Shown here: piece after piece, positions 10,881 through 57,255 of the stretch
Numbering within the stretch: position 1 is the stretch's first letter
How the letters are laid out: each line of letters starts with the position of its first letter
Source: Alphaproteobacteria bacterium
Lineage (GTDB): Bacteria > Pseudomonadota > Alphaproteobacteria > RF32 > CAG-239
DNA length: 64,000 nt
NCBI GenBank assembly: GCA_015062235.1
Contig: SUUZ01000006.1
Location: 11,258-75,257 of the forward strand
Reading direction: 5' to 3'
Notes under the pieces: generated by a model
What the model saw: the letters and a program-made list of their open reading frames with translations, nothing else
The model's database searches: none
Told to the model about the DNA's origin: nothing
Program-made: the position numbers and the translations under genes

Positions 10881-11501
10881 TTATAATGCTCGGATATTTA
10901 ATAATTGGTAAATATCTTGACCAGTTTTATCTTCAAAATAACCTCGCAAGCACAAAGCGTTTTCCATAAGAACGCCCAACAAACGCTTCGGTAAATTGTA
11001 TCGTCGAACAATACCTTTGAAGCGATTCTCAAAATCAACCTTTTGCATACCTTCAAAAAACATATCACAAAGCTGGATTAATCTATCGTAGTCGTCATAT
11101 ATTATTCCAGAAAGTTCTTTGCGTGCCCATTCGAGCCATTCTTGCGGATAAGACAGATAATCCTCATTATCAAAATCTTGTTTTGGGAAGGTGTGTGTTA
11201 GACAAATACGGGCAGCAACAGAATAACCAAGTTTATTTAACTCTTCATAGCCGCTTCGTCCATGGAATTTATTAACCGCTCGTTCATCATACTTTTTTCC
11301 ATAATCGTGAAGCAACCCAAGTATATATGCCTTTTCAGGATCCATGTCGGTTGTTGCCGAAGCAATAATACGTGATGCTTCTGCCACACCGTGAGTATGA
11401 AAAACATATTCTTCTCTTGTTTCAAAGGGTGTTGTTGCACAACGATATTCATACCCATCACGCCAAATTTTATACGCTTCTTCTCGTTTAGGATATGTCA
11501 T
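10881..11501 (-). CDS. HD-domain phosphohydrolase (paralog 2, tandem duplicate)
   Basis: [12 protein letters not shown] motif. 206 aa. Clear paralogy with the adjacent gene ([20 protein letters not shown] shared). Confidence 0.6.
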
Positions 11502-43687: not shown

Positions 43688-43734
<47 letters not shown>

Positions 43735-43809
43735 ATATTTAGAAAAATAGCACATAACATATTGTAATTAGGTAATTTTTTAACAGATTAAAGATTTTAT
43801 AAAAAATGT

Positions 43810-43835
43810 GGTGCCTCAATGGTGCCTCATTTTTT
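43810..43835. repeat. tandem GGTGCCTCA x2 + T-run motif (candidate integrase arm-type/accessory site, left end)
   Basis: GGTGCCTCAATGGTGCCTCATTTTTT. 24/26 match to the copy at 57059-57084, in the same orientation. Confidence 0.5.
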
Positions 43836-44087
43836 AGAAAAAACACCATTTTTTAGATATTAAATTATGGATGAAAATATTTATTTTTTCTCATACCAAG
43901 CACCCTTGGTAGAACCATTTTTAACCAAGAATCCACCATCAACCAATTCTGCTAATGCTTTTTTGTAAAATAAAAATATTTTAAAATTTTTTCATTTTAT
44001 TTTTGCTTTTTCCTAATCAAGTTTGGTAATATACAAATAAAGCAAATAATACTTATTAAACTTAACTATAATTTTATGGGGGTAATT

Positions 44088-44240
44088 ATGAAAGAAAGCA
44101 AACAATTTTTAGAAGAATGGGTAAAGAATTATTCAACAGATAACCAAACAAAAGAATGGTTAAATGAATGGGTTAAAAAAGCATCAGTTGAATCTCAAAC
44201 TAAACAATGGTTAGAAAGTTGGGTTAATTCTTCTAAATAG
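44088..44240 (+). CDS. small repeat peptide (50 aa; below ORF-track threshold) with iterated EWV/EWL motif
   Basis: MKESKQFLEEWVKNYSTDNQTKEWLNEWVKKASVESQTKQWLESWVNSSK. RBS-like GGGGGTAATT upstream. Followed by a terminator hairpin. Confidence 0.3.
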   Translation: MKESKQFLEEWVKNYSTDNQTKEWLNEWVKKASVESQTKQWLESWVNSSK

Positions 44241-44257
44241 CAAATAGTTTCATCATA

Positions 44258-44292
44258 AAAAAGCACAGAATCTCCCACTTCTGTGCTTTTTT
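44258..44292. terminator. bidirectional rho-independent terminator
   Basis: AAAAAAGCACAGA ... TCTGTGCTTTTTT between the convergent small ORF and the 317-aa gene. Confidence 0.55.
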
Positions 44293-45244
44293 ATAATGGA
44301 AATAATCCATAATATTTTAAATTATCTATCAAATCACTAAAAAGTTCATCATTATTTTCAAAATGAAAACCAATACTACTATTAGAATCATAACAAATGA
44401 TTTTACTATTCTGCCTATCAAATGTTATATGTATATTAACAATATCTTCTTTACCTTGTTTAATTACAGCCTCTTGAAGTTTATCCTTGCAAGATGAAAT
44501 GGCATATGCAAGATTATACAATATTTTATCAATAGCAATTGCATATAACATTCTTTTAGTTTCTTGGAATATTTGTGGAGTGCAACTTTTATTATTAACA
44601 ACAATAGGATATATAATCTTGGATTTTCTCATACTTATAATGTCTTGTTTTGCAATTTCTTCTGATAAAGGTATGCCTTTTAAAGAGCAGCCATCTAGTA
44701 GTCCTTGCCAATTTCTATCTAATATATCTAATAAGTCTTTATCTGCAAAATTACTATGATTTCTTACATCTAAAAAAAATACATTATTTCCCCACACATA
44801 TGTAAACAGTAAAAAATTATCATTATATTTTGTTCTTTTATCAAGAGGATGAATATGCAAATGAATTATTCCCCAATCATTTAACATATAGTCATTATAA
44901 GTTAAATGATTAGAATGTGTGCTTAAATATGGTAAAATAGATGAACCTTTTTCAAAGCATTTTTGTATATTATCTATTTTTTTCTTAAATGCTTTATATA
45001 GTTTGGATTTTAATATTTCTTTGGAGTAATATACAGCCTTTTTTCCACAAGGAAGCCTTTGCATATTGTAAATATAACATTTTAACAAGTCTTTATAATC
45101 AGCATCTTTGAGATATTCTTTAGAATGTTTTGTGATTTCTATATTTTGTGTTTTTATAAAATCATTAAATAGTTCAATTAGAAAATCTCTGCAATCTTGC
45201 TTAAAATTATTAAAAATGCTTGTTATATTTACATCATCACTCAT
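44291..45244 (-). CDS. hypothetical protein translationally coupled (ATGA overlap) to Type ISP RM gene
   Basis: 317-aa ORF whose start codon overlaps the stop of the 1613-aa RM gene. No recognisable motifs. Confidence 0.4.
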   Translation of the reverse strand: MSDDVNITSIFNNFKQDCRDFLIELFNDFIKTQNIEITKHSKEYLKDADYKDLLKCYIYNMQRLPCGKKAVYYSKEILKSKLYKAFKKKIDNIQKCFEKGSSILPYLSTHSNHLTYNDYMLNDWGIIHLHIHPLDKRTKYNDNFLLFTYVWGNNVFFLDVRNHSNFADKDLLDILDRNWQGLLDGCSLKGIPLSEEIAKQDIISMRKSKIIYPIVVNNKSCTPQIFQETKRMLYAIAIDKILYNLAYAISSCKDKLQEAVIKQGKEDIVNIHITFDRQNSKIICYDSNSSIGFHFENNDELFSDLIDNLKYYGLFPL

Positions 45245-48200
45245 TTCAAATCCAATTTTGGCAATCTCTTAACAATCTCATTAGTTGCCATACTAACTGT
45301 TATAATGGATAAAATCAAGTCAAGGATATATCTTGGGTTATTGTGTTCCAATCCCCAATCATTAGGGTCATTCTTAATTCCACTATCTTTATCAATCTTA
45401 ACTTGGTATCTATCCATAATCCACTCTATTGCTGATTTACCATTAATAACATAATCATATGCTTCTAATGGAATATTCTCTATTCTGATATATGAATTGT
45501 AAATTAAGGTTGATTTATCAACATCTTTGCCATTTTTGCCAAATGATAGCTTCTCAACATAATATTTTTCACTATCTTCCCCAATAACCTTAACATCTGG
45601 ATATGCTGGAACTGCCTCATAATTTAAGTGAAGTTCTGCTAATTCTCTACCAGCTTTACTAAATGCCCAGAAATCATTAGGAACATCTACAAGAGGTATT
45701 TTTGGCAACATTTTCTTCAAATCTGCTGCAAATTGCTCTCTATAATCTTTGGAATGCAATAAACCATAAACATAATAGAATATATCTTCTTTAACTACTT
45801 TATGACCATATCTTGTTTTGCATTGTTCCAATATAAAATCAGTAATACCATCTCTTCTGATATAATTCTCTTTACCTTGGTCAAATAATGTTCCTATATT
45901 TCCCTTATTTTCTTCATAGTAATATAGTGGGAAACATTGTGAATCACCATTTAAGTGCAAATCAGGTATATGATTTACTATAATTGGAACTCCATTTTTC
46001 ATTGCAGGAAAGCAAATACACACATTTTTATGCTCTGATGTTGGGAATAATTTAGGTATCTGATACATCATTTCATTCAATGGTTTGTATAAAAACAAAT
46101 ATTGTTTATAAAATGGTCTATATACAGCATAAACAATATTACCATCTGAATAATTATATACTTTATTCTTATTTACATCATTTTGAGTTGCTCTTGTCCA
46201 AACTATTTTTGATGGCTCATAAGTAATTTGTAAGGATTTATTATCATTTAACTTATTTCTTTGTTCATTATAAAAATCAATAGTTGTTTTTATATTATTT
46301 TCTAAATCTTTTTTTGATGAATTATAACACCAAGGGTCTCTTTGGGTTTTTAATCCATTTGAATAATATGGAACAAATACAGTTCTAGTATTAGTTTTAT
46401 CATCTTTATCACCAAGAGGTATAAATGAACTAAATAAATCACTTCTTTGATTTAACCAATCATTATGCTCATTAGGTCTTAATGCCTTCCACTCTATTTT
46501 AGAATTATTTATACCCTTAAAATGCTTTAATATCTCTAATTTTTCTGTTCTTTTTAGATAATCACCAATATCATGGTAATAAATTGTTGCTTTTTCATCT
46601 GGATTTTTATTAGGTTTCTTAACAAGAATAGTGATAGCAACACCTGTCATAATATCAAATACATTTTGACCTTCTTTTTGGGCAGCATCTTTGGATTTTC
46701 CTCTAATAGCACCTCTTAAATTAAATATATGAATAGAACTAAACTCTTGTTCTAAACATTGTCTAAACCCATCCATAGAGTTAGATTCAAGCCATCCACC
46801 ATTAGTAATAAAGGCAACTATACCACCATTTTTGTTATCTAATCTATCTGATGACCATCTAAATGCCTTTATATAACTATCATATAAAGCATTTTTATTA
46901 GTGGCTGTTCCCAATTTAGCATAGGTTTCTTCAACTCTACTATCTAATTTAGGATATTTTTGGTTTTGTGCATTATCATTGGCATTTTTCTGACCAACTG
47001 AATATGGTGGATTACCAATAATAATTCTTACTGGTGCTTTCTTTTGTTCAATAACTCTTTCAGAGTTTTGTGGCAACATATCAGAGAATAATTCATCTGC
47101 TTCATCAGATTCTCCTAATTGGAATGTATCTGTTAAGCAAATACCATCAAATGGTTGGTATTCATCTTTAAGTTCCATAATATCATGGTATGCATTTTCT
47201 ATGTTAATAGAGGCAATATAGTAAGCCAATAATACAATCTCATTACAATGTAATTCTTTTGCATACTTATGTGGCAATGCCTTTTTATCAATAAGACCTT
47301 GCTGAATCATTCTTGTAATAAATGTTCCAGTGCCTGTAAATGGGTCTAAAATATGGACATTTTCATCAGATAAACTTCTGTTAAACTCTTTTTTCAATAC
47401 TTGTGCTACTGAATTATTAATAAAATCAACCACTTCAATAGGTGTATATACAATACCTAATTGTTCAACAACTTTTGGGAATGCTGTTTTGAAGAACTTA
47501 TCATATAATTCAACTATAATCTTTTGCTTACCTTCTGCATTATCAATGCCTTCAACCCTTTCTTTTACTGATTCATAGAACTTATTTAAGGTTTCAGCAT
47601 CTTTATCCATTGCTTGTTCTTCAAGTAAATCAATCATTTTCTGTAATGATTTAGATACTGCATTGTTTTGAACAAATGAATAATTCTCAAATAATGCCTC
47701 AAATACTGGTTGTGTTATAAGATGTTGTGCTAACATCTGTATAACTTCATCTTTGGATACAGATGGGTTAATATTCTTTTGTAAACCCTTTAATAAGCTA
47801 TCAAATGCTTTTTTATGCTTACCTTCTGTTGCAATAAGTAAGTTAATTCTCTCAATATATCTTTGTGCAATCTGTGCAACATCTTGTGCCCATTGGACCC
47901 AATATCTCTTATTTCCAACCTTTTGCACCATTTTAGCATAAATTGCATTTTGCAACTGGTCTATTTCAGGTAGTGGTAATGCTAATTGGGTGCTTTCTGT
48001 TGATGATGTTGTTGTATCACCATCAGAATCTGTTGCTTTACTGCCAATTCCACCAACAATAATCTTGTTATTCTTCTTTTTATTCAAATCAATCTTATTG
48101 ATTTCAGCATTAAATCTATCATCATGGGCTCTTAAAGCATTAAGGACTGTCCAAACAACCTTATATCTCTCATTATCATCCAATGCTTCTTCTGGCTTTA

Positions 48201-50082
48201 CACCTGATGGAACAACAATAGGAATAATTATATAGCCATATTTCTTATTAGGTGCTGTTCTCATAACTCTACCAACTGATTGCACCACATCAACTTGGCT
48301 ATTCTTGGCAGATAAGAACATAACAGCATCAAGTGATGGAACATCAACACCTTCTGATAAACACTTAACATTGGTCAATATATGACATTCATTGCTATCT
48401 TTTGGTGCATTTTTTAACCAAGATAACAATTCATCTCTTTGGCTTGCACCCATTGTTCCATCAATATGCTTTGATTCAACACCAACTAATTGGCTTCTTT
48501 CTTCTTGGGTTAAACTATCATAATAAGCATCTTTATGGTTATTAAACATTCCACTTATTTTTTGTGAAACTTTAATATTTTGGCAGAATGCAACTGCTTT
48601 TGTCATAGGTGATTTATCATCATTGAATGCTTCATCTGTTGATAAAACCCTTTTAGACAAAGCATTTATACAACCAATTAACTTACTAATATCATCTGTA
48701 TTGATTTCATTGCTCTTGTCTGAAATAACATTTTGTAATGCTGTTGGAATCTGTTCTTCTTTTAAGGTTAAAATCAATACCTTATAATCTGCTAATAGAT
48801 TTTTTGATACTGCTTCACCAAATCCAATTCTATACATTTCTTGTCCATAGATGCTTTCATCATCCATTGAACACAATATTGCATCATTTTCTTGGGCTTT
48901 TTGCTTACTTGCATCTGTATATAATCTTGGGGTTGCAGTCATATACATTCTTTTTTTAGCAACAATACAGTCATTATTATGGACCTTTGTAAATGATGCT
49001 TCTTCTTTATCTTTTAATACAACACCAGTAGTTCTATGGGCTTCATCACAAATTACCAAATCAAATATACAAGAATCCTTTTGTCTTTTATTGATGGCTT
49101 CTTGGGCTTTGGATATAACATCAATTGATTGATATGTAGAGAATACAACAATCATTCTATCTTTATGTTGCTGTTTTGCTAACTCATATTGATGAATAAT
49201 ATTAGGAACATTGGTTGATGCAGGTAATGCCAAATCAACCACACTCATATCATCATTGTCTGTTTTTTTGGTAATTGCTGGGTCAGAACAAATACAAATA
49301 GGATAAATTGGCTTTTCTGATTCAGCACACCATTCTCTTAATGTCTGCCCTAATAATGCTATTGATGGAACTAAAAATAGCACCAATCCACTTCCATTGG
49401 TTTCTTTTTCAGCAATTTTTAAGGATGTATAGGTCTTACCACAACCACAAGCCATTATTAACTTGCCTCTATCATTGCCTTTAAAATGCTCATTTACATT
49501 AGAAATTGCTTTATTTTGGTGGTCTCTTGGTGTTTTTTTCTGTTTTCTTGCTGATTTTCCTTCTTCTCCATTTACCAATTTATCCCAATCAACATTAGAG
49601 TTCTCTAAATCTGTTAAACTAATTCTGATAAGTGGTGGATTCTGATTTTTTATTGTATTTTCTGCTTCACCATTCCAATGGTTAGTAGTTGAAATCCATA
49701 ATCTTTGGCTAAATTGGACTGTCTCCATATTTTCATTATAAAAACTCTTGCTTGATGTAGATAAAAAACTATCAACACCAGCTTTATCAATGTAAGCATT
49801 TTCCTCATAGCATTTACATTGAACTGCCCAATAATCACCCTCAACTGTCTGTGCAACTAAATCAATTCCAGTATCTTTACCACTGAAATCTTTTCTATAT
49901 GGAAACTCATTCCATAGCCATATCTGCTTGAATCTTCCTTCATATGTTGGTTCTGACAACATATACTTCTTCATTAAGAGCTCAAATCTTGCACCCTTAT
50001 CTCTTTCAGAGAATGCTTCTCTTCTAAACTTTTTTAATACATCACTGAATGATAATATTGGTGTGGTCATATTGCTCTCCAT
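45241..50082 (-). CDS. Type ISP restriction-modification enzyme (Mrr-like nuclease + SF2 helicase-like ATPase + gamma-class N6-adenine methyltransferase + TRD, single polypeptide; LlaGI/LlaBIII-like)
   Basis: N-terminal PD-(D/E)xK-like IDLVAQTVEGDYWAVQCK. Helicase motif I ACGCGKT, motif II ICDEAHRTTG, motif VI QSVGRVMR. MTase motif I DPFTGTGTF and motif IV NPPY. Long C-terminal specificity region. 1613 aa. Confidence 0.85.
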   Translation of the reverse strand: MESNMTTPILSFSDVLKKFRREAFSERDKGARFELLMKKYMLSEPTYEGRFKQIWLWNEFPYRKDFSGKDTGIDLVAQTVEGDYWAVQCKCYEENAYIDKAGVDSFLSTSSKSFYNENMETVQFSQRLWISTTNHWNGEAENTIKNQNPPLIRISLTDLENSNVDWDKLVNGEEGKSARKQKKTPRDHQNKAISNVNEHFKGNDRGKLIMACGCGKTYTSLKIAEKETNGSGLVLFLVPSIALLGQTLREWCAESEKPIYPICICSDPAITKKTDNDDMSVVDLALPASTNVPNIIHQYELAKQQHKDRMIVVFSTYQSIDVISKAQEAINKRQKDSCIFDLVICDEAHRTTGVVLKDKEEASFTKVHNNDCIVAKKRMYMTATPRLYTDASKQKAQENDAILCSMDDESIYGQEMYRIGFGEAVSKNLLADYKVLILTLKEEQIPTALQNVISDKSNEINTDDISKLIGCINALSKRVLSTDEAFNDDKSPMTKAVAFCQNIKVSQKISGMFNNHKDAYYDSLTQEERSQLVGVESKHIDGTMGASQRDELLSWLKNAPKDSNECHILTNVKCLSEGVDVPSLDAVMFLSAKNSQVDVVQSVGRVMRTAPNKKYGYIIIPIVVPSGVKPEEALDDNERYKVVWTVLNALRAHDDRFNAEINKIDLNKKKNNKIIVGGIGSKATDSDGDTTTSSTESTQLALPLPEIDQLQNAIYAKMVQKVGNKRYWVQWAQDVAQIAQRYIERINLLIATEGKHKKAFDSLLKGLQKNINPSVSKDEVIQMLAQHLITQPVFEALFENYSFVQNNAVSKSLQKMIDLLEEQAMDKDAETLNKFYESVKERVEGIDNAEGKQKIIVELYDKFFKTAFPKVVEQLGIVYTPIEVVDFINNSVAQVLKKEFNRSLSDENVHILDPFTGTGTFITRMIQQGLIDKKALPHKYAKELHCNEIVLLAYYIASINIENAYHDIMELKDEYQPFDGICLTDTFQLGESDEADELFSDMLPQNSERVIEQKKAPVRIIIGNPPYSVGQKNANDNAQNQKYPKLDSRVEETYAKLGTATNKNALYDSYIKAFRWSSDRLDNKNGGIVAFITNGGWLESNSMDGFRQCLEQEFSSIHIFNLRGAIRGKSKDAAQKEGQNVFDIMTGVAITILVKKPNKNPDEKATIYYHDIGDYLKRTEKLEILKHFKGINNSKIEWKALRPNEHNDWLNQRSDLFSSFIPLGDKDDKTNTRTVFVPYYSNGLKTQRDPWCYNSSKKDLENNIKTTIDFYNEQRNKLNDNKSLQITYEPSKIVWTRATQNDVNKNKVYNYSDGNIVYAVYRPFYKQYLFLYKPLNEMMYQIPKLFPTSEHKNVCICFPAMKNGVPIIVNHIPDLHLNGDSQCFPLYYYEENKGNIGTLFDQGKENYIRRDGITDFILEQCKTRYGHKVVKEDIFYYVYGLLHSKDYREQFAADLKKMLPKIPLVDVPNDFWAFSKAGRELAELHLNYEAVPAYPDVKVIGEDSEKYYVEKLSFGKNGKDVDKSTLIYNSYIRIENIPLEAYDYVINGKSAIEWIMDRYQVKIDKDSGIKNDPNDWGLEHNNPRYILDLILSIITVSMATNEIVKRLPKLDLK

Positions 50083-50257
50083 AATTGCCCATTTATGGAG
50101 AGCTAAAAATACTAATCAGTTTTTATTTTATTATAACCTATTGCAGCCCTTCTATCTCCAACAATTCTGTGAGTTTAGAGTCCTTTTTTATTTAAATTTT
50201 AATATTTTATCCTTATTCTCAACCTATATAATCTAAATGGGCATCTATTTTATATAT

Positions 50258-50288
50258 CTTTGATAAATAAATATACTATTTATCAAAG
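50258..50288. promoter_or_regulatory. 12-bp perfect inverted repeat CTTTGATAAATA-N7-TATTTATCAAAG immediately upstream of serine recombinase start
   Basis: Palindrome ends 9 bp before the ATG at 50298 and overlaps the RBS. Candidate operator or recombinase site. Confidence 0.4.
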
Positions 50289-50297
50289 GATTATATA

Positions 50298-50900
50298 ATG
50301 ATTTATGGATACATTAGGGTCAGTTCAGACCAGCAAAATTGTGCTAACCAAAGATTTGAATTGGACAATTATGCTGCTAAAAATAAAATAAAAATCAATG
50401 AATATATAGAAGAGACCATATCTTCAAGAAAACATCTAAAAGATAGGAAATTAGGTAAATTACTGGATAAAATTGGTAAAGATGATGTTGTAATTACTAC
50501 TGAAATATCAAGATTAGGTAGGAATATGCTTGAAGTAATGGGTATTCTTCAACAATGTTTAGAGAAAGAATGTGAAATAATCACAATTAAAGAAAATTAC
50601 CATCTTGGTGCTGATATTCAGTCAAAAGTGCTTGCTTTTGCTTTCAGTTTAGCAGCAGAAATTGAAAGACAACTTATCTCCCAAAGAACCAAAGAATGCC
50701 TAAAAAGATTAAAAAATGAAGGTAAACATTTAGGAAGACCATATGGATTTACTTATAAAAAATTAAAAAAGAAGCATAATAAAATAAAAGAACTATTGGA
50801 TAAAAATGTATCAAAAGCAGAAATAGCAAGACTTATGGGATGCACTTGGACCACACTTCATAGATACATAAATGAATATATAAAAAATAAAGAACCATAG
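50298..50900 (+). CDS. serine recombinase (resolvase/invertase family) with C-terminal HTH
   Basis: N-terminal catalytic MIYGYIRVSSDQQ (Ser nucleophile) and SRLGRN. C-terminal HTH MGCTWTTLHRYI. 200 aa. Confidence 0.85.
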   Translation: MIYGYIRVSSDQQNCANQRFELDNYAAKNKIKINEYIEETISSRKHLKDRKLGKLLDKIGKDDVVITTEISRLGRNMLEVMGILQQCLEKECEIITIKENYHLGADIQSKVLAFAFSLAAEIERQLISQRTKECLKRLKNEGKHLGRPYGFTYKKLKKKHNKIKELLDKNVSKAEIARLMGCTWTTLHRYINEYIKNKEP

Positions 50901-50937
50901 ATTTCTCTATGATTCTTCTTATGAAATTAAATGATTT
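50868..50937. repeat. 70-bp direct repeat copy A (includes last 11 codons + stop of recombinase gene and an internal CATAGA-N4-TCTATG palindrome)
   Basis: Identical 70-mer at 52343-52412. Together they bracket the Fic gene and its upstream repeat array. Confidence 0.75.
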
Positions 50938-50957
50938 GTTCTATATATTTCTCTTTT

Positions 50958-52061
50958 TTAAAAATTATTATTACCCTCAACAATATTCAGCAAATTAGCA
51001 AAAACATATGTTGTTGGTCTTTGTCCTGCACCTTTTTTATGAACCTTCAAAATATCAGCATCAACCAACTTAGATAAAATGTTATTACAGGTAGCCTTGT
51101 TATTAATTTTAACATCTTTTAATAATTTTGTTGTGGTTATAAATGGACTTTCAAATAAAGAATCACAAATAGCAGTTGAATGATATGAATGGGTAATAGA
51201 TGGAATTTTTTCTTTAACCAAATCATATAGTTCTAATATTTTCTTTGCTCTTTGTGTATTAGTCTCTGACTGAATAATCACAGCATTCAAAAAGAACTCA
51301 ACCCAAGACTGCCAATCTCCTTCAACTGATATTTTATTGAGTTTATTATAATATTCCCCTCTATTATTTTCTAAATATTCACTTAAGTAAAAAACAGGAG
51401 ACCTCAAATAATTTTTGGAATATAAGAATAAAGGAATAAGGATTCTTCCCATTCTTCCATTTCCATCATTAAAAGGGTGAATAATTTCAAACTGAGAATG
51501 CAAAATGGCTAATTGAACCAATGTTTCCTCATCTTCTTTATGCATATATTTTTCAAAATTATCCAAAGCAGGAAGCATATCAACATATTGAGGAGGAACA
51601 TATCTAGCATTTTCTATTGTATCACCTGCTGCACCAATAAAAACATCTGTTGTTCTAAATTCTCCTCTATTTTTATTATGACCTCTAACACCAGCCAATA
51701 ATCTAAAATGAATATCCTTCAACATATTTAAGCAAAGAGGTCTTTGAGTTAAATCCTCAGTAGCAAAGGCTAAAGCATTTCTATAATTGTTAATTTCCTC
51801 AATATCATTTTCTTTTTCTTGGTCATATTTTTCACCCAAATCTTTTTGATAAATATCTGATAAAGATGCCCTTGTTCCTTCAATTTTAGAAGACAAAACA
51901 GCCTCTTGTTTGGTTAAGGGGGATAAAAGAATTTTAGGATTTACCATATTATGTAAAATTCCATTATAATTAGATAGTTTGGCATTTGCTTTGCCAATTA
52001 GTGGTGCTAATGCTTGCCAATCTAGACCACTAATGGGTAATTTATCTGGAATAAAATACAT
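50958..52061 (-). CDS. Fic-domain protein (AMPylator/Fic-DOC family), class II with N-terminal inhibitory motif
   Basis: Fic motif HPFNDGNGRMGRIL. N-terminal inhibitory-helix motif SSKIEG ([ST]xxxE[GN]). 367 aa. Confidence 0.9.
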   Translation of the reverse strand: MYFIPDKLPISGLDWQALAPLIGKANAKLSNYNGILHNMVNPKILLSPLTKQEAVLSSKIEGTRASLSDIYQKDLGEKYDQEKENDIEEINNYRNALAFATEDLTQRPLCLNMLKDIHFRLLAGVRGHNKNRGEFRTTDVFIGAAGDTIENARYVPPQYVDMLPALDNFEKYMHKEDEETLVQLAILHSQFEIIHPFNDGNGRMGRILIPLFLYSKNYLRSPVFYLSEYLENNRGEYYNKLNKISVEGDWQSWVEFFLNAVIIQSETNTQRAKKILELYDLVKEKIPSITHSYHSTAICDSLFESPFITTTKLLKDVKINNKATCNNILSKLVDADILKVHKKGAGQRPTTYVFANLLNIVEGNNNF

Positions 52062-52342
52062 CTTAACCTCTTTGTTTGAAATTTATACACACTTTATTTT
52101 ACATAATATACATTGTGTAAAATTTAAAAGCAATATATTTTACACAAATTTATTTGTATAAAACCTGTTATTCACAAAACAATTTGTGTAAAATATTTAA
52201 GAGGTAAGTTATACACAAAACATTTTGTGTATAATAAAATTGACACTAAATTATTTGTGTATAAAAAAATCAAAAAATTTTTACACAAATACAAGTGTGC
52301 AGAATTCTCATTTCTGTTTATTTCTATAAAATTCAACAAGAT
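52062..52342. repeat. iteron-like array: at least 7 copies of TTTGTGTA(A/T)AA / TTTTACACAAA in both orientations incl. palindrome TATACACAAAA-CA-TTTTGTGTATA
   Basis: Copies read directly at about 52113, 52138, 52158, 52178, 52190, 52220, 52232, 52255 and 52285. AT-rich. Lies upstream of Fic and inside the 70-bp-DR-bounded cassette. Confidence 0.6.
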
Positions 52343-52412
52343 ATAAATGAATATATAAAAAATAAAGAACCATAGATTTCTCTATGATTCTTCTTATGAA
52401 ATTAAATGATTT
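52343..52412. repeat. 70-bp direct repeat copy B
   Basis: Identical to 50868-50937. Confidence 0.75.
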
Positions 52413-52466
52413 ATTATACATAATAATAAAAAGGGCTCATAATTGCCCTAAATTGCTTTATTTTAA

Positions 52467-53189
52467 TTACAATTCCATCATTTCCTTATGTGTAACATAT
52501 TTGTTTTCTATTTCATCTAATAGTAAAATCATTGCATTACTATCAACAATTCTTGCTAAATCTTGACAATCTAAATTAACAATAGGTATTGGACATACTG
52601 TGCTTCCATTATAGTAATTTAACAAACTTGTTAAATACTGCCATTTGTTGAACACTGTAATGTGGGTAGCAAGAATGCCATAATTATCTGGCAGACTATT
52701 TATATTTGCTCCTTTTTCTAATAGATATTCAACTAAATAGGTATCATTCTTTCTCAATGCTAATATTAGGGCACTTTCACCTAAATCATTAGTAGCATCA
52801 ATATCTTCCCCCTTATCTAATAGGACATCTATAACAATTTTTTTATCAAACTTACATATTTTTGGATTTGCTACCACTGCCATCAATAATGTGTAGTTAT
52901 TCTTATGTTTCTTTTGGATATTTAAAATATCAATCTCTGGCAGAAGTCTTGTATAATTTTCTTCTTCTAAAAATAATCTAAATAAATCATCATTACCCAT
53001 AATTGGGTAGAATTGTTGCAATAATTGCTCTTCTGTTATGAAGGACAATCTATTAATTAATTTTTGAATATATTTGGCATTAGGGGACATAAGGAATGAA
53101 GGTATTGTCTCCTTATAAACTGATTTGAATAAATCAATTATTTCTTTTTTTGTAATACCACTAAAATCAACTTTATTACTATTATCCAT
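52467..53189 (-). CDS. ankyrin-repeat protein
   Basis: At least 2-3 ANK repeats: DATNDLGESALILALRKNDTYLVEYLLEKGANINS. 240 aa. Confidence 0.7.
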   Translation of the reverse strand: MDNSNKVDFSGITKKEIIDLFKSVYKETIPSFLMSPNAKYIQKLINRLSFITEEQLLQQFYPIMGNDDLFRLFLEEENYTRLLPEIDILNIQKKHKNNYTLLMAVVANPKICKFDKKIVIDVLLDKGEDIDATNDLGESALILALRKNDTYLVEYLLEKGANINSLPDNYGILATHITVFNKWQYLTSLLNYYNGSTVCPIPIVNLDCQDLARIVDSNAMILLLDEIENKYVTHKEMMEL

Positions 53190-53226
53190 TGTAGTTCCTT
53201 TTATTATAATAATATTTATTCAATTC

Positions 53227-54165
53227 CTAATATGAATTGGCAAATAATACATCTTGTTTATTGTAGATTTTGGATATCTTATTGTAAAAATCCATTCCTA
53301 ATAACTGCTTTTTCTCATCTGTTATGTCTTCTTTTATTGAATATGAATAAATGCCATCATTTTTAACTTTACCTAATTCAATATCTAATTTGGGATATTT
53401 GGGATTTAGATAGGTAAGGGAATAAAATATTATTTCACCTGTTTTTTTATCTATATGTTCCTTCTTTTTTGCCAAATTATGTTGGGGGAACTTACATATT
53501 TCTTTATCTATTCCTTTATTTTTACAATATATGATGCCATCAACATTTTCTAAATCATTACATTCTATTGTATCATAATGATTTTTATGAAGATTTAAAA
53601 GATTATAAAATATAAAATCTTTTAGTTCTTTTGCTTCATCATCTGTTACATCAATTAGTAGATGATAATGGGTATGTTCTTCTACATCCCTAACTTTCCC
53701 ATTTTCTTCAAATAAGAAGAATTTAGGTATTTTATCTAATTTCTTATACCATCTTTTACCTAATTTATTGCTGTAATAGAATCTCAATATATTATGTAAT
53801 TCATTGAATAATTGATTTTCTTCATTCCAAGTTTTAGGATTTATTGATATAAATTGGGGATTTGTCATCAATTGATGTATTGTATCAGTTGTTGTTTCCA
53901 ATTTTGGAAGTGATTTATCTTGCTCTCTTATTTTAAAATTTATTTCATTCACTAATGAATTAAAATTATATTCATCAATTGCTTTTAATTCAGTTATGTA
54001 ATTTGAATCAATAAATTGATATTTCTTTAATTGTTCAATATTTCTATCTTTAATTGCTTTAAATGACAGATTTAATTTGTTTAATCTTTTGATTTTATTA
54101 TAAAAATCAATTTGTTTTAATTCTCTTGCTGTATATTTTGTTCCTACAATATTACTCATAATCAC
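53227..54165 (-). CDS. hypothetical protein with possible HUH-endonuclease-like motifs (HTHYHLLI ... IIYCKNK)
   Basis: His-hydrophobic-His motif at about residue 165 and a Tyr/Lys motif about 40 aa downstream, as in rolling-circle Rep/relaxase proteins. Otherwise unassignable. Confidence 0.3.
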   Translation of the reverse strand: MIMSNIVGTKYTARELKQIDFYNKIKRLNKLNLSFKAIKDRNIEQLKKYQFIDSNYITELKAIDEYNFNSLVNEINFKIREQDKSLPKLETTTDTIHQLMTNPQFISINPKTWNEENQLFNELHNILRFYYSNKLGKRWYKKLDKIPKFFLFEENGKVRDVEEHTHYHLLIDVTDDEAKELKDFIFYNLLNLHKNHYDTIECNDLENVDGIIYCKNKGIDKEICKFPQHNLAKKKEHIDKKTGEIIFYSLTYLNPKYPKLDIELGKVKNDGIYSYSIKEDITDEKKQLLGMDFYNKISKIYNKQDVLFANSY

Positions 54166-54415
54166 TCCTAATAATTAAGTATAAAAAGAACAACAGAAGG
54201 TTTTACCTCTGTTTTTTCACTCTCAATAATGTGGATTTACCTACATTATCTTACTGATTTTGAAATCAAATGGGTGTGTCCTAAATCTATTTATTAGAAT
54301 ACCATTCCATCTTGGAATTTTTAAAAATTAAAATTTTAAAATCTAAAAATAATTATTTTGACTTTTGCTTAACTTGTTGGAAATCAATAAAAAGTGATAA
54401 ATAGATATAATTACT

Positions 54416-54793
54416 ATGGGGAATTATATGAATATAATAGAAAGCATCCAACAACAGAACCAATTAAGGAAGATAAAAAAAGAAGTTAATAGAATTGCAC
54501 TGCCTAATAAGGCAATTGCTTTTTTAAAAAAATGTTATGGATTAGTTGCTGATGAATTGAAACTAATTGAATCTCAATATGAGTTTAGCAGGCAGATAAT
54601 GAATACTAATCAATTTTATTATGCTAAAATGATTTGTGAAGGCAAATCACCTTCTATATCTTGTATCTCCACAATTGTTGAGAATATTAAGACATTAAAA
54701 GAATTACCTAACCTAAATAAAAGTATATTGAAGCAAATTGATGCTTTATATGATGAAGGGCAACAAATTATATATCAGAAATTGTTGAAGTGA
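54416..54793 (+). CDS. hypothetical protein (125 aa)
   Basis: ORF with RBS-like sequence. No motifs. Confidence 0.3.
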   Translation: MGNYMNIIESIQQQNQLRKIKKEVNRIALPNKAIAFLKKCYGLVADELKLIESQYEFSRQIMNTNQFYYAKMICEGKSPSISCISTIVENIKTLKELPNLNKSILKQIDALYDEGQQIIYQKLLK

Positions 54794-54883
54794 TAAAAAT
54801 TGATGAACTCAATATCTTTTTTATAATAAAATAAGTTTTATCTTGCCTTTTTTATTTTTGAACTATAAACATAGTTAAGGTAT

Positions 54884-54960
54884 ACTGGTGTAGCTCATCT
54901 GGATAGAGCACAGGTTTCCTAAACCTGGGGTAGGGGGTTCAAGTCCCCCCACTAGTGCCA
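54884..54960 (+). tRNA. tRNA-Arg (anticodon CCT), intact, island-borne
   Basis: Manual cloverleaf: acceptor ACTGGTG/CACTAGT. D-arm GCTC-ATCTGGATA-GAGC. Anticodon arm CAGGT-TTCCTAA-ACCTG. T-arm GGGGG-TTCAAGT-CCCCC. Encoded CCA. 77 nt. Confidence 0.88.
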
Positions 54961-55899
54961 GTTTCTGTGTTTTATCTGATGTGTTGCCTCATATTCTTCT
55001 ATATCTTTTAACTTATAAAATACTTTGCTACCTATTTTAATATAGTTAGGACCTTCCCTTCTGACTCTCCATCCCATTAGGGTATTTTCTTTCATATTCC
55101 AGTAATCTGCCAATTCTTTGGTGGTCAGCATATCTTTTTCAATTTTTTGAGAATCTGATTGTTTTACCTTTACATCATTGGTAATAATTTTAATTCCATT
55201 GCTGTCCTTATGTTGTAATTGTAGTTTTTCAATTTCATTAGCATATAGGTCAAATTTTGAGTTTTTTAGTGAATTTTTGAATATTTCCAAGCATTTTATG
55301 AAATCTTGCTTGTGTTTTCCTTTGAAATCAATATTCAACATTTCAAACTTTTCACCAAATATTGTCTTTGTCATCCAGAATAAATTATGGAAAATAGAAT
55401 CCTTAATACAACTGTTCATATTCCAATCTCTTCCATAGAAAGATACTTCATCTTTGAACTCTGTGTTATAGAATTGGAGTCCCTTATCATCATTGTGGTG
55501 TTTTGTTTCTTCTATATCACATCTAAATGTTGCTTCTTTATAAAAGATAACTCTATCAAATACTGTGTTTTTATTAAAAATAGAATCCTTGAAAAAGACA
55601 GAATCCTTAAACTTTATGTCTTTAAATTTTAAATATGTTTTGAATGATGTATTACTAAAATTGACAATATCATTAAAATCACAGTTATTAAATGATAGGG
55701 ATGAGGTGATTTTTAATTCATTTCCTTCAATTTTACCAAACTTACAGTTATCAAACTTTGTATTTTTTGTTTCTAATAATAGAATCTCTACCAATTCACT
55801 ATTATCTGCTTGTGTAAAGTCAATATCCTTAAAATTAGCAATTTTTTGCTGAATAAACTTCTCTTGATTAAAGTGTGTCTCTCTTTTGTATTTTCTCAT
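54952..55899 (-). CDS. Xis/AlpA-like HTH (excisionase-family) protein with N-terminal Phe-rich 5-6-residue tandem repeat domain
   Basis: C-terminal LTTKELADYWNMKENTLMGWRVRREGPNYIKIGSKVFY matches the excisionase/MerR-like HTH. N-terminal region has F at 5/6-residue intervals (beta-solenoid-like). Stop overlaps the tRNA 3' end. Confidence 0.5.
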   Translation of the reverse strand: MRKYKRETHFNQEKFIQQKIANFKDIDFTQADNSELVEILLLETKNTKFDNCKFGKIEGNELKITSSLSFNNCDFNDIVNFSNTSFKTYLKFKDIKFKDSVFFKDSIFNKNTVFDRVIFYKEATFRCDIEETKHHNDDKGLQFYNTEFKDEVSFYGRDWNMNSCIKDSIFHNLFWMTKTIFGEKFEMLNIDFKGKHKQDFIKCLEIFKNSLKNSKFDLYANEIEKLQLQHKDSNGIKIITNDVKVKQSDSQKIEKDMLTTKELADYWNMKENTLMGWRVRREGPNYIKIGSKVFYKLKDIEEYEATHQIKHRNWH

Positions 55900-55903
55900 A
55901 TTA

Positions 55904-57046
55904 CTATCCTATCATCTTCTTAACTGTGTCATTTAGTGTTTCTCTTAGTTGCTCAACATCAAGGTTCACATAAATCTGTGTGCTTTGAATATTAGAATGA
56001 GTTAGTGCTTTTTTCACTTGGAAAGCATTGGCACCATATGAGACCATATATGTTGCCAATGTATGTCTTAAATCATGGAGGTGTAAATTAGTAATTTCTG
56101 CTTGGGTTAATATAGATTTCCAAGTTCCTCTAACCTCTGTGATATGCCCTGTTTTAGATTCAGTTGAGAAGAATACATATTCATTGTATTTTGTTTCTGC
56201 TAATCTTTTTAATATTTTAACAGCACTATCTACCAAGGCAACAGACATATTTTTGCCTGTTTTTGTTTCTGGGATTACCCAAGTTTTACTTTCCAAATCC
56301 ACATCTTGCCATCTCATAGAAAATACATTGCTTCTCCTTGCTCCTGTCATCAATAGCAACCAAATAGCATCTTTGGATATAGAATCTGGATAATTATTGA
56401 TGACCTCAACAAACTTTTCCATTTCTTTTTTGGTTAAATACCTAATTCTTGGGGATTCTTTATTCAACTGAACTGGAACTACTGGGTTTCTGCCATCATA
56501 AAGGTTTCCTTTAATGAAATAATTAAAGATGGTTTTGGAAAATACAATAGAATGATTGGCACACCTTTTACCATTATTAGTGGTGATTTTTTTATGTAAT
56601 TTTTTGAAATCATCAGTGGTTAATTGAGATATTTTCTTGTTTCCAAGAACATTTAAATAGTTTTTCCATAGTCCTTTATAACCATCAATAGTTCTTGGTT
56701 TTAGGTGTTGTTCTTTTTCCTCTATGAATTTTTCATACATAACTTTAAAAGAATCCTCTTGATTTAATTTCTTCTTTTCAGCAATAGGATTCTTGCCTGA
56801 ATTCAACATAATTTTAGTTTTTCTTGCCTCATTTCTTGCTTCATCAACACTCATAAATGATGGTTCACCAAGTTTTACTCTTATCTGATTACCAAGAACT
56901 CTACCTCTTAAATAATAACTTTTATTACCACTTGGAGTTAATAGAAGGGATAAACCTTTCTCTTCTGTGTCATAAACATAGACCCTTTTATTTTGAGGTT
57001 TCAGATTCTTAATATTAGCATTAGTAAACTTGAACTTGTTGCTCAT
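55904..57046 (-). CDS. int: tyrosine recombinase, P4-type integrase
   Basis: N-terminal arm-binding domain (FTNANIKNLKPQNKRVYVYDTEEKGLSLLLTPSGNKSYYLR). C-terminal catalytic HDLRHT...Y motifs. 380 aa. Confidence 0.9.
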   Translation of the reverse strand: MSNKFKFTNANIKNLKPQNKRVYVYDTEEKGLSLLLTPSGNKSYYLRGRVLGNQIRVKLGEPSFMSVDEARNEARKTKIMLNSGKNPIAEKKKLNQEDSFKVMYEKFIEEKEQHLKPRTIDGYKGLWKNYLNVLGNKKISQLTTDDFKKLHKKITTNNGKRCANHSIVFSKTIFNYFIKGNLYDGRNPVVPVQLNKESPRIRYLTKKEMEKFVEVINNYPDSISKDAIWLLLMTGARRSNVFSMRWQDVDLESKTWVIPETKTGKNMSVALVDSAVKILKRLAETKYNEYVFFSTESKTGHITEVRGTWKSILTQAEITNLHLHDLRHTLATYMVSYGANAFQVKKALTHSNIQSTQIYVNLDVEQLRETLNDTVKKMIG

Positions 57047-57058
57047 CTATACCCCCTT

Positions 57059-57084
57059 GGTGCCTCATTGGTGCCTCACTTTTT
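57059..57084. repeat. tandem GGTGCCTCA x2 + T-run motif (right-end copy, 13 bp upstream of int start codon)
   Basis: GGTGCCTCATTGGTGCCTCACTTTTT. Matches 43810-43835. Confidence 0.5.
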
Positions 57085-57205
57085 ATCAATTTTGATAAAT
57101 TTAAATCAATACACAAGAAAAATAAAATGCTTGATTTTTATTGAAATACAGTATATTAAGAAGAATATTGGGTGTCAATGAAAAAGATAAAAAACCTTGC
57201 TTCCA

Positions 57206-57255
57206 CAGTTTCCTAAACTGTGGGTAGGAGGTTCGAGTCCTCTCACTGGCGCCAT
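57206..57255 (+). pseudogene. 3' portion (anticodon arm to CCA) of the disrupted host tRNA-Arg(CCT); includes right 20-bp direct repeat (57206-57225)
   Basis: ACAGT-TTCCTAA-ACTGT-GGGTA-GGAGG-TTCGAGT-CCTCT-CACTGGC-G-CCA. Followed by a strong terminator. Confidence 0.7.

Follow-up and report, generated by a model that had tools for sequence, protein, structure and literature searches.

Results

A Fic module inserted between two copies of its target

A segment of 1405 bp, carrying a class II Fic gene and the palindrome array upstream of it, has been inserted into a defence island between two copies of a 70-bp sequence. The window, as we use the term, is the whole stretch of DNA analysed, 64,000 nucleotides long. 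Comparison with related islands establishes that a segment was inserted and where its boundaries lie, that the repeat derives from the target, from what type of source the module came and that no such insertion recurs at this site. As for the event behind it, our leading reading, taken with about even confidence, is that one duplicative insertion of a portable array and Fic module left the region as its scar. We infer that this was not a site-specific reaction of the adjacent serine recombinase; an illegitimate event based on repair or replication, between co-resident related islands, is more likely. The elements involved are the following:

50298-50900, plus strand: small serine recombinase of the resolvase/invertase type, a borderline member of the Mpi family, 200 aa
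50868-50937: repeat copy A, made up of recombinase codons 191-200 with their stop, the hairpin of the terminator and a further 19 nt
50889-50918, minus strand: terminator-like hairpin of copy A, with a 13-pair stem, a 4-nt loop and a T-run on the minus strand
50938-52342, minus strand: inserted segment of 1405 bp (array and Fic module), missing from relatives with an empty site
50958-52061, minus strand: class II Fic protein, 367 aa, with Fic_N, Fic and SoFic-like winged-helix C domains (Pfam)
52097-52304: array of six 26-bp palindromes, TTwTACACAAA-N4-TTTGTGTAwAA, with centre spacings of 41/30/41/30/40
52343-52412: repeat copy B, which duplicates the recombinase 3' end and terminator without the rest of the gene and adjoins the ankyrin flank as in the empty sites
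52364-52393, minus strand: terminator-like hairpin of copy B, counterpart of that in copy A

An earlier note on this DNA had described a perfect pair of 70-bp repeats, and we confirmed both its positions and its 100% identity (spacing 1475 bp). The note had counted 11 recombinase codons and the stop in copy A; there are 10 (codons 191-200, INEYIKNKEP) and the stop. The match can be extended to 91 nt at 91% identity (50857-50947 against 52332-52422), and the flanks of the perfect repeat, over the next 10-11 nt, resemble each other more than chance would give (7/10 and 6/11), a likeness that the leading reading does not account for. The 35-nt core of the repeat has exactly two matches in the window, against none in 100 shuffles. 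As also noted before, the repeats enclose just the Fic gene and its repeat-rich upstream region: the segment between them holds no other ORF, only Fic and the six palindromes, all of which lie in the 281 bp upstream of the Fic ORF. The repeat is centred at 50902.5 and the hairpin at 50903.5.

The left integrated junction reads TTCATAGATAC-repeat-GTTCTATATA and the right one TTCAACAAGAT-repeat-ATTATACATA, while a hypothetical deletion product would read TTCATAGATAC-repeat-ATTATACATA and a hypothetical circle TTCAACAAGAT-repeat-GTTCTATATA. A degenerate 91-nt pattern covering all four junctions matches the window twice, and gave no hit among metagenome contigs of a collection that lacks this organism. 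One could argue that the structure is an assembly artefact, either a chimeric join of two loci or strains through the shared 70 bp or a free circle of 1475 bp that the assembler placed in the chromosome, and Logan unitigs at k=31 do break exactly at the repeat (L003 and L031). However, k=141 contigs and JGI assemblies from at least 10 samples are continuous and identical across flank-repeat-Fic and Fic-repeat-ankyrin, and the k-mers of the MEGAHIT k=141 contigs cover the whole repeat and both flanks. Since the structure is assembled alike in at least 10 independent samples, we regard an artefact as extremely improbable. Samples with this allele include JGI 3300023371, 3300018430, 3300018494, 3300019376 and 3300022589, ENA ERZ27248377 and related records, and SRR7032241.

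Empty sites identify the repeat as target DNA

The segment lies in an integrative island with the following further features:

43714-57224: integrative defence island, about 13.5 kb, with a 20-bp att core ACAGTTTCCTAAACTGTGGG at 43714-43733 and 57205-57224
45241-50082, minus strand: Type ISP restriction-modification enzyme, 1613 aa (Pfam), divergent from the recombinase and a conserved neighbour in relatives
50075-50288: conserved region upstream of the recombinase (alignment A7), with palindromes P_a and P_b
50075-50102: P_a, containing the start codon of the restriction-modification gene
50258-50288: P_b, at the ribosome-binding site of the recombinase
52467-53189, minus strand: 240-aa protein with ankyrin repeats, whose gene has a terminator of its own (52432-52449)
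54884-54960, plus strand: complete island-borne tRNA-Arg(CCT), replacing the split host gene
54952-55899, minus strand: Xis-like HTH_17/pentapeptide protein
55904-57046, minus strand: tyrosine integrase, adjoining attR

A tRNA-Arg(CCT) of the host is split here, and the att core corresponds to its anticodon stem-loop; joining the two tRNA halves restores an intact tRNA-Arg(CCT) by ARAGORN. The element has the marks of a tRNA-integrating genomic island, namely a terminal integrase gene and a direct att repeat that stems from a tRNA gene.

Related islands with one repeat copy and no cassette, which the earlier note had proposed to look for, do exist (L022, L046 and L047). The repeat region is single-copy in L022 and L023 (recombinase 96% identical), L046 (97%) and L047 (96%). 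In L022 and L047 this single copy leads directly into the same ankyrin gene and flank as copy B does, so the ankyrin gene is the original convergent neighbour of the recombinase. The first 33 nt of the repeat are recombinase coding sequence, conserved in all relatives, and no repeat-like sequence was found beside Fic in any other Fic context compared. Given a single copy in every close relative and none beside Fic elsewhere, the comparison identifies the Fic segment as a genuine insertion and the 70-bp repeat as duplicated target DNA, and not as an att site brought in by the cassette. The duplication is recent, since the two copies have in common substitutions that are derived with respect to the relatives.

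Of the marks of a transposable element, the insert thus shows a target-site duplication with a matching empty site. It lacks a transposase of its own, Fic being its only long ORF, and its ends show no terminal inverted repeats (best end-to-end inverted match of 8, against a shuffle mean of 8.8). The locus had been pictured as an inserted, or excisable and invertible, cassette; the discrete insertion holds, while inversion finds no support, since a search for inverted repeats or invertible segments around the cassette or the island gave nothing convincing. Homologous recombination between the 70-bp repeats could now delete the cassette precisely, and no such loss was observed.

The palindrome in the repeat resembles a terminator

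Both copies contain CATAGA-TTTC-TCTATG, which in copy A overlaps the TAG stop of the recombinase. This CATAGA-N4-TCTATG palindrome had been reported in the earlier note; the full dyad is longer, with 13-nt arms. The hairpin in copy A is a predicted terminator that would end both the Fic and the recombinase transcripts. At the same position, relatives carry covarying or unrelated stems with loops of about 3-8 nt, so that every lineage has a hairpin there, and by its sequence the palindrome appears to behave as an intrinsic terminator. The crossover site of a serine recombinase requires fixed spacing between its half-sites. Conserved half-sites at a fixed spacing, kept wherever the recombinase is kept, are not seen at this position. 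The proposal that the palindrome is a plausible crossover site is therefore not supported, since relatives hold unrelated terminator stems with variable loops where fixed half-site spacing would be needed.

The adjacent recombinase is a fixed gene of the island family

The recombinase has a clear catalytic domain (PF00239, E=1e-32, residues 2-143) with the serine motif YxRVSxxxQ (YIRVSSDQQ, residues 5-13), whereas HTH_7 and other HTH models match its C-terminus (residues 155-194) below their gathering scores. It aligns over its full length to Gin and gamma-delta resolvase, and the closest solved structure is that of the Gin invertase (4M6F, E=4e-10). Its top NCBIfam hit is NF009949, the Mpi family, at 271.8 bits, 0.2 bits short of the cut-off of 272; a 74% identical homolog, P0101, carries the NCBI name Mpi family. 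ARACGTWCGT, which we take to be the consensus of the Mpi inverted repeats, is not enriched in the window (3 matches with at most 1 mismatch, against 5.2 expected), and none of the matches lies in the island.

The conserved palindromes P_a and P_b travel with the recombinase gene, and a search for copies of them at the cassette borders found none. We compared 39 genome and about 20 metagenome loci with recombinases 55-97% identical, and only the lineage of the window has any cassette there, or a repeat that includes the recombinase 3' end. By this comparison, the recombinase is a fixed component in a family of mosaic defence islands, where it always lies beside a restriction-modification gene. 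Neither an att site travelling with the cassette nor different cassettes at the same site were found; the homologous islands with another cassette that the earlier note had envisaged are absent among about 40 related lineages.

These data bear on the view that the repeat is a recombination site, at whose palindrome the Mpi-like recombinase integrated a circular Fic cassette that it could re-excise by resolution. Several features would suit it: the recombinase gene adjoins copy A, the repeat holds a 26-bp dyad (12 + 2 + 12, central TT) of hix-like geometry, resolution uses direct repeats as its substrate geometry, and homology between island variants frequently stops near this terminator. Yet the repeat belongs to the target and is missing from Fic modules elsewhere; the dyad gives way to unrelated stems with loops of about 3-8 nt in relatives with 70-97% identical recombinases; and about 40 lineages have no cassette at the site. 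Moreover, the 70 bp of perfect identity far exceed what an enzyme with a 2-bp crossover needs, and the conserved palindromes beside the recombinase gene are missing from the repeat. Small serine recombinases seldom integrate, which also speaks against this model, and we consider it improbable. The earlier claim that the cassette is served by the adjacent recombinase is likewise unsupported, in view of the variable hairpin, the lack of any cassette or duplication there in about 40 related loci and the fixed place of the recombinase in the island; the adjacent recombinase probably did not put the Fic insert in place.

The same Fic module heads defence operons in other islands

The class II identity proposed for the Fic gene is backed by its Pfam domains and by two motifs: HxFx(D/E)GNGRxxR (HPFNDGNGRMGR, residues 195-206) and the inhibitory (S/T)xxxE(G/N) (SSKIEG, residues 57-62), the latter inside Fic_N, N-terminal to the Fic core and in the same chain. 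With a match to the SoFic structure 3EQX (E=7e-33), the gene is of the class II Fic AMP-transferase type by domains and motifs, and its activity is predicted accordingly from them. The palindrome array occurs once in the window. It is kept with Fic in all five context types, and accompanies Fic even without a recombinase nearby (L088-L091). The array is a putative promoter/operator of Fic, which the winged helix at the C-terminus of Fic itself may bind.

The nearest Fic modules are those of L032-L039, 91.6% identical in nucleotides over 50948-52294, a match that begins 5-10 bp beyond the stop codon and reaches 233 bp into the upstream region. There, the module heads a defence operon at another position in the island, without flanking repeats, and is followed by variable defence genes (OLD-like ATPase, GmrSD/HEPN and RloB) and a 183-aa resolvase. 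Outside the module, the island reaches only about 80-86% identity to any relative. Because the module is closer to L032-L039 than the remaining island is to any relative, the data suggest that the Fic module passed between island lineages. L046 and L048 are a pair of such islands within one MAG. ARAGORN and Rfam matched no tRNA or other known RNA to the conserved stretch that precedes donor-type Fic modules (..GGAGCACCA). A search for Fic relatives in viral contigs returned none, and a second metagenome scan with the Fic protein returned 9 loci only, with no new context types.

Two other solitary contexts of this Fic clade (at least 84% amino acid identity) were found, and both have direct repeats of 36-78 bp, with unrelated sequences. 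In L088-L091, Fic is flanked by perfect or near-perfect repeats of 76-78 bp (106 bp extended), and in L085, L086 and L095 by repeats of about 78 bp (about 85% identical) with a 36-bp core. At the same loci, repeats flank 3/13 Fic ORFs and 3/618 others (Fisher p=1.3e-4, a post hoc comparison). The repeats differ in origin: target DNA in the window, the 3' end of a relic ORF in L085 and the module's own array in L088-L091. We rejected a chromosomal target duplication for the L088 type, since relatives show there a 2.8-kb inserted segment to which the repeat is internal.

That the same clade is repeat-flanked in two further independent contexts is evidence against a one-off scar, and the enrichment argues for a systematic process over an accident. 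The array and Fic module might itself be a mobile cassette, moved by a trans-acting enzyme or through Fic bound to the array; its insertion and excision cycle would leave direct repeats of about 40-80 bp, and the window would hold one of several insertions. All three solitary arrangements of the clade (3/3) are repeat-flanked at similar distances, the enrichment over other ORFs at these loci is strong, and the borders recur, just beyond the array and about 10-50 bp past the stop, where they equal the cargo-exchange junctions of the operon-head forms. Against this, the borders carry no conserved terminal sequence or inverted repeats, the flanking repeats of the window, L085 and L088-L091 differ in origin and no transposase or recombinase accompanies the module. 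We know of no DNA-transfer chemistry for Fic domains. On balance we find such a cassette unlikely. Its bolder form, a new kind of transposase-less cassette that duplicates about 70-80 bp around its entry point, is always repeat-bracketed and can later be excised, we judge distinctly unlikely; its mover would be an island serine recombinase acting in trans, or a nucleoprotein complex on Fic's own operator array.

A Campbell-type integration, in which a circle with the Fic module and a 70-bp copy recombined homologously with the resident sequence, would also place the module between direct repeats. A single homologous crossover predicts perfect identity across the whole repeat, and in L088-L091 the repeat comes from within the module's own array, as if homology had chosen the site. 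But such a route requires an earlier molecule in which Fic already adjoined the recombinase terminator, leaves the primary event unexplained and finds no such donor arrangement among 13 distinct Fic loci, which makes it quite improbable in our view.

Discussion

A proposed single duplicative insertion at a terminator

Under the reading that we prefer, a single duplicative insertion, the moved unit would comprise the six-palindrome promoter/operator array and the Fic ORF, cut about 10 bp past the stop codon. Normally the head of a defence operon in related islands, the module would have been copied or moved here in inverted orientation, entering at the convergent intergenic terminator between the serine recombinase and ankyrin genes. 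The target duplication would span 70 bp, perhaps about 80 bp with ragged ends, with its midpoint within 1 bp of the hairpin centre. Such an event would leave the recombinase ORF intact, let the Fic and ankyrin genes each end at one terminator copy and put a second, dead set of recombinase codons 191-200 upstream of the Fic array. It could have proceeded through staggered breaks on both sides of the hairpin followed by fill-in, or through a template switch that left the target after the repeat and re-entered before it. To our knowledge, no documented repair pathway yields a clean 70-bp duplication centred on a hairpin. A deletion or inversion from a tandem or circular island was rejected by reasoning, as neither could produce the observed orientation together with a duplication in one step.

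Sites with and without the insert are both identified, as is the donor-type arrangement, and the locus offers a clean, dated case of the module-by-module rebuilding of a defence island in uncultured gut Alphaproteobacteria. Should repeats flank this Fic clade systematically, they would point to an undescribed movement of single genes that leaves 40-80-bp duplications, of relevance to the spread of toxin and defence genes. A one-off would instead carry a lesson for annotation, namely that a palindrome-bearing repeat beside a recombinase gene can be a mere duplicated terminator.

Comparison with known systems

Our literature search for Fic genes flanked by direct repeats, or for toxin cassettes of serine recombinases, found nothing relevant. 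Like the Fic insert, insertion sequences of the IS1634/IS1549 type are bracketed by a long direct target duplication, although they encode a DDE transposase and have terminal inverted repeats, and the insert has neither. The target duplications of IS1634 and IS1549 measure 8-514 bp, and at the time of that description no mechanistic model for them had been put forward (PMC2266710).

Chromosomal integron arrays (gene-attC-gene-attC, as in the VCRs of Vibrio) also combine a promoter-proximal gene, near-identical repeats of about 60-130 bp, an imperfect palindrome and an adjoining recombinase. However, the island has no IntI-type integrase (under the integron-integrase model, whose cut-off is 265 bits, its tyrosine integrase reaches 55), the repeat consists of the recombinase gene's own 3' end and not of an attC that came with the cassette, and there is a single cassette, with none in relatives. 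The repeat is followed by GTTCTAT or ATTATAC instead of the attC core GTTRRRY.

In the res x res systems of Tn3, gamma-delta and Sin, a small serine recombinase gene likewise lies beside direct repeats, and their multi-subsite res resembles the six-palindrome array in layout. Unlike res, the repeat of the window has one terminator-like dyad, and the array has no second copy in the window and accompanies Fic.

SoFic (Shewanella oneidensis SO_4266), a class II Fic AMP-transferase, has the same domain order, the HPFxDGNGRxxR motif and the N-terminal (S/T)xxxE(G/N) motif. Nevertheless, the Fic protein of the window reaches 179 bits, against the SoFic equivalog cut-off of 550, and shows an association with defence islands.

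In Bacteroides fragilis, 13 promoter regions are inverted by the master DNA invertase Mpi (PMC4747536). Like the recombinase of the window, whose top hit is the NCBIfam model of its family, it is a small serine recombinase; but no invertible segment was found here, and the gene lies in a mobile island of Alphaproteobacteria, beside a restriction-modification gene.

Finally, as in tRNA-targeting integrative islands with P4-like tyrosine integrases, int and xis stand at one end of the element and a 20-bp att duplication lies in a tRNA-Arg. In contrast to those islands, that of the window interrupts the tRNA at its anticodon stem-loop, leaves it unrestored and brings a whole replacement tRNA-Arg(CCT).

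Structure of the repeat-bracketed Fic segment

As the earlier note had described, the two copies of the direct repeat (copy A, 50868-50937; copy B, 52343-52412) match over 70 bp with zero mismatches at an offset of 1475 bp. The match extends, less identical, for 11 nt to the left and 10 nt to the right, giving 91 nt at 91%. The repeat core hits the window twice and shuffled sequences not at all. Copy A comprises the final 10 codons (INEYIKNKEP), rather than 11 as previously counted, and the stop of a serine recombinase gene. The 1405 bp between the copies hold what had been claimed for them, the Fic gene as the single long ORF and a repeat-rich upstream region, made up of six palindromes:

50298-50900, + strand: serine recombinase, 200 aa
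50958-52061, - strand: Fic protein, 367 aa
52097-52304: six 26-bp palindromes upstream of Fic, consensus TTwTACACAAA-N4-TTTGTGTAwAA

In the recombinase, PF00239 identifies a resolvase catalytic domain (E=1e-32). Among NCBIfam models the "master DNA invertase Mpi family" fits it best, scoring 271.8 bits where the cut-off is 272, and among proteins of solved structure Gin, Sin and gamma-delta resolvase come closest. The Fic protein, whose nearest solved relative is SoFic, presents Fic_N, Fic and SoFic-like C-terminal domains. Because it combines the canonical motif HPFNDGNGRMGR (residues 195-206) with an N-terminal inhibitory motif, SSKIEG (residues 57-62), it is a class II Fic protein. The palindrome centres are spaced in strict alternation (41/30/41/30/40 bp), and the array probably serves as the operator of the Fic winged-helix domain. 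Its palindromes also show a hix-like geometry (12 + 2 + 12) and are kept with Fic in every context.

One could argue that such a structure arose during assembly, and assemblies do break at the repeat, as expected, in k=31 Logan unitigs (L003 and L031) and only there. At least 10 samples yielded the same 2.2 kb, in 22-23 contigs that agree at 99.95-100% identity, and k=141 MEGAHIT contigs among them cross each repeat plus both its flanks. Since the assembly is identical across samples, repeat-spanning contigs included, the repeat-Fic-repeat structure is not an artefact, an explanation to which we give almost no credence. Perfect repeats of 70 bp are long enough for RecA-dependent deletion; among contigs that carry this recombinase allele and extend far enough to cover the region, all retain the cassette.

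Empty sites in related islands

Homologs of the recombinase (55-97% identity) are abundant, and we inspected about 60 of their loci. Their common module consists of an R-M gene (-), the recombinase gene (+) and an ankyrin gene (-), the last two converging on a hairpin, and Fic was absent between recombinase and ankyrin gene in all of the ~60 loci read. Comparison with homologous islands, which the earlier note had proposed, did reveal a single repeat copy with no cassette: the 70-bp region is single-copy, with 5-6 substitutions, in the closest relatives, L022 and L023 (96%), L046 (97%) and L047 (96%), and in L022 and L047 it leads directly into the ankyrin flank found after copy B. Because these relatives continue into the same flank, the window differs from an empty site by the addition of 1475 bp, and what was duplicated is target DNA, which bears out the view of the Fic segment as a cassette-like insertion. 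Copies A and B have common substitutions, derived relative to these four loci, so the duplication is young.

Every locus was screened for duplication of the recombinase 3' end and the downstream 140 bp, and this was found in the window's lineage only. This confinement argues against a cassette site served by the adjacent recombinase, as had been suggested. The same proposal placed the crossover at the palindrome of each repeat. On the minus strand, this dyad has a 13-pair stem, a 4-nt loop and a T-run, and lies just downstream of Fic (copy A) or of the ankyrin gene (copy B). At the same position, other lineages carry AAAACCAGAG-(loop ~3-8 nt)-CTCTGGTTTT or AAAAGCCAGA-TTTATT-TCTGGCTTTT, and still others wholly unrelated G+C-rich stems. 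Serine-recombinase crossover sites require fixed half-site spacing, while stems that covary around loops of variable length characterise intrinsic terminators. The dyad is best read from these comparisons as a terminator-like site and not as a crossover site.

The sequences that do co-vary with the recombinase gene are palindromes P_a and P_b, in a 215-bp upstream region (50075-50288) kept in all relatives, even with a different divergent R-M gene. P_a (CTCTCCATAAtTGCCCaTTTATGGAGAG) embeds the ATG GAG start of whichever R-M gene adjoins, P_b (CTTTGATAAATA-N7-TATTTATCAAAG) overlaps the recombinase RBS, and no copies of either occur at the cassette borders. The conservation of this region and the positions of P_a and P_b suggest that the recombinase's real business may lie with the R-M gene. 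Recombinase-mediated integration and excision would employ an enzyme encoded next to the cassette, but the roles it assigns to that enzyme and to the palindrome are not supported, and we consider it improbable.

The recombinase terminator lies directly against a tRNA gene in some relatives (L056 6088-6336; L048 10703-10779); L056 has a perfect 75-bp direct repeat (tRNA 3' end and terminator), an att-type duplication with almost no spacer between copies. In L070 (4408-5993), three G+C-rich elements of ~180-200 bp (CTCCGACCAATAGG...CTATTGGTGG...GAGCGCGCACCACGAGC) flank an HD-domain gene ~1 kb downstream of the recombinase homolog, with a second small serine recombinase in between; these could represent a further cassette bracketed by repeats, or else a structured RNA.

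Source of the Fic module

The nearest Fic genes (96% aa) are those of L032-L039 and L092-L094. Nucleotide identity between these loci and the window is 91.6% from 5-10 bp past the Fic stop to 233 bp upstream, palindromes included, versus ~80-86% between the rest of the island and any relative. This greater similarity, and the presence of both L046 and L048, two such islands, in one MAG, make it plausible that the module was transferred between co-resident islands. In the nearest loci the module lies away from the Mpi-like recombinase, first in a variable defence operon, and is followed by an OLD-like ATPase, GmrSD with HEPN, AAA_21/RloB or an unknown protein, and then by a 183-aa resolvase, a helicase and an R-M gene. 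The cargo switches within ~10 bp of the Fic stop, the same point where the window insert ends. With respect to the recombinase, Fic has opposite orientations in the window and in these islands.

Beside the operon-head modules of L032-L039 and L092-L094 no repeat-like sequence was found, nor are these modules flanked by repeats. Campbell-type homologous integration of a circle already bearing the repeat would also leave the module between two copies; we consider this route very unlikely. In L032 and L036 (4279-7104), the Fic module is preceded by the end of a large serine recombinase gene, with one hairpin between the two; ankyrin, DUF6626 and other island genes lie upstream of that gene, an arrangement that looks like an island circular-form or tandem junction.

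Direct repeats around the Fic clade

The Fic clade (at least 84% aa identity) occurs in five arrangements. Flanking repeats were present in three out of three solitary arrangements and in neither of the two operon-head types.

Flanking repeats of solitary Fic genes
Window: 70-bp repeat; target DNA (recombinase 3' end and terminator)
L088-L091, 5789-5866 / 7097-7174: 76-78 bp perfect or near-perfect, 106 bp extended; distal three array palindromes, repeated downstream of Fic
L085, L086 and L095, L085 2913-2990 / 4370-4446: ~78 bp at ~85%, 36-bp core; last 22 codons and stop of a relic ORF

The repeats of L088-L091 lie within a 2.8-kb segment inserted between the genes for amidase and ruvX, and relatives lack this insertion. 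Among 631 distinct ORFs from all loci, an exact 20-mer common to the 400 bp upstream and 200 bp downstream was found for 3 of 13 Fic ORFs versus 3 of 618 others (Fisher p=1.3e-4, post hoc). Repeat-flanking of this clade is hard to dismiss as coincidence, and may reflect a specific, undescribed mechanism. The array and Fic could form a genuinely mobile cassette, as this enrichment would fit; we regard this as unlikely. The three repeats have different origins and unrelated sequences, and the module ends show no common sequence or inverted repeats, which rules out a classical transposon.

The host island

The Fic locus sits within a 13.5-kb integrative island (43714-57224) with a 20-bp direct repeat, the att core ACAGTTTCCTAAACTGTGGG, at its ends (43714-43733 and 57205-57224). 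The 5' half of a tRNA-Arg(CCT) lies to the left and the 3' half to the right; ARAGORN finds it intact once the halves are joined. The island splits this host tRNA at the anticodon stem-loop with no restoration, and carries a complete replacement tRNA-Arg(CCT) of different sequence (54884-54960) beside xis and int. Its gene order is: 317-aa unknown protein, Type ISP restriction enzyme, recombinase, Fic, ankyrin protein, two unknown proteins, complete tRNA-Arg(CCT), Xis-like protein and tyrosine integrase. The Xis-like protein (54952-55899, 315 aa) fuses pentapeptide repeats to a C-terminal HTH_17/excisionase domain, and its gene overlaps the island tRNA by 9 nt at the 3' end.

Contigs identical to the window locus come from metagenomes only; those of the relatives belong to MAGs labelled "Alphaproteobacteria bacterium", which derive from the gut of ruminants, humans and mice. 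The Type ISP-recombinase module (window 45243-50904; L012 2935-8611) has the opposite orientation in L012 and L015, within an att frame like the window's: the M20 peptidase gene and the 5' tRNA half border one side, and the island tRNA, xis and int border the other. Either the module was inverted or mosaic islands were put together independently. Elsewhere in the window, its housekeeping part has a 40-bp direct repeat (10651-10690 / 11299-11338; 95% identity, 648 bp apart).

Mechanism and comparison with known systems

The locus shows a single insertion with a 70-bp target duplication. The repeat centre (50902.5) falls within 1 bp of the hairpin centre (50903.5), and the insert lacks a transposase, terminal inverted repeats and a cassette-borne att site. 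The most likely origin, at about even confidence, is that the module came from a related island by illegitimate insertion based on repair or replication. Staggered breaks on either side of the hairpin followed by fill-in could produce it, or template switching could have copied the repeat twice. The description that suits the feature best is that of a portable Fic module which recently entered a terminator within a mosaic defence island by duplicative insertion.

The arrangement resembles integron/VCR arrays and res x res substrates; for each, the features that define it were sought and found to be lacking. Mpi of B. fragilis acts by promoter inversion (PMC4747536). Unlike that system, the window locus has neither an invertible segment nor an Mpi-type repeat. 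Long target duplications (8-514 bp) are known for IS1634 and IS1549, with no mechanistic model proposed at the time of that paper's writing (PMC2266710); in contrast to the window insert, which has neither, these elements possess transposases and inverted ends.
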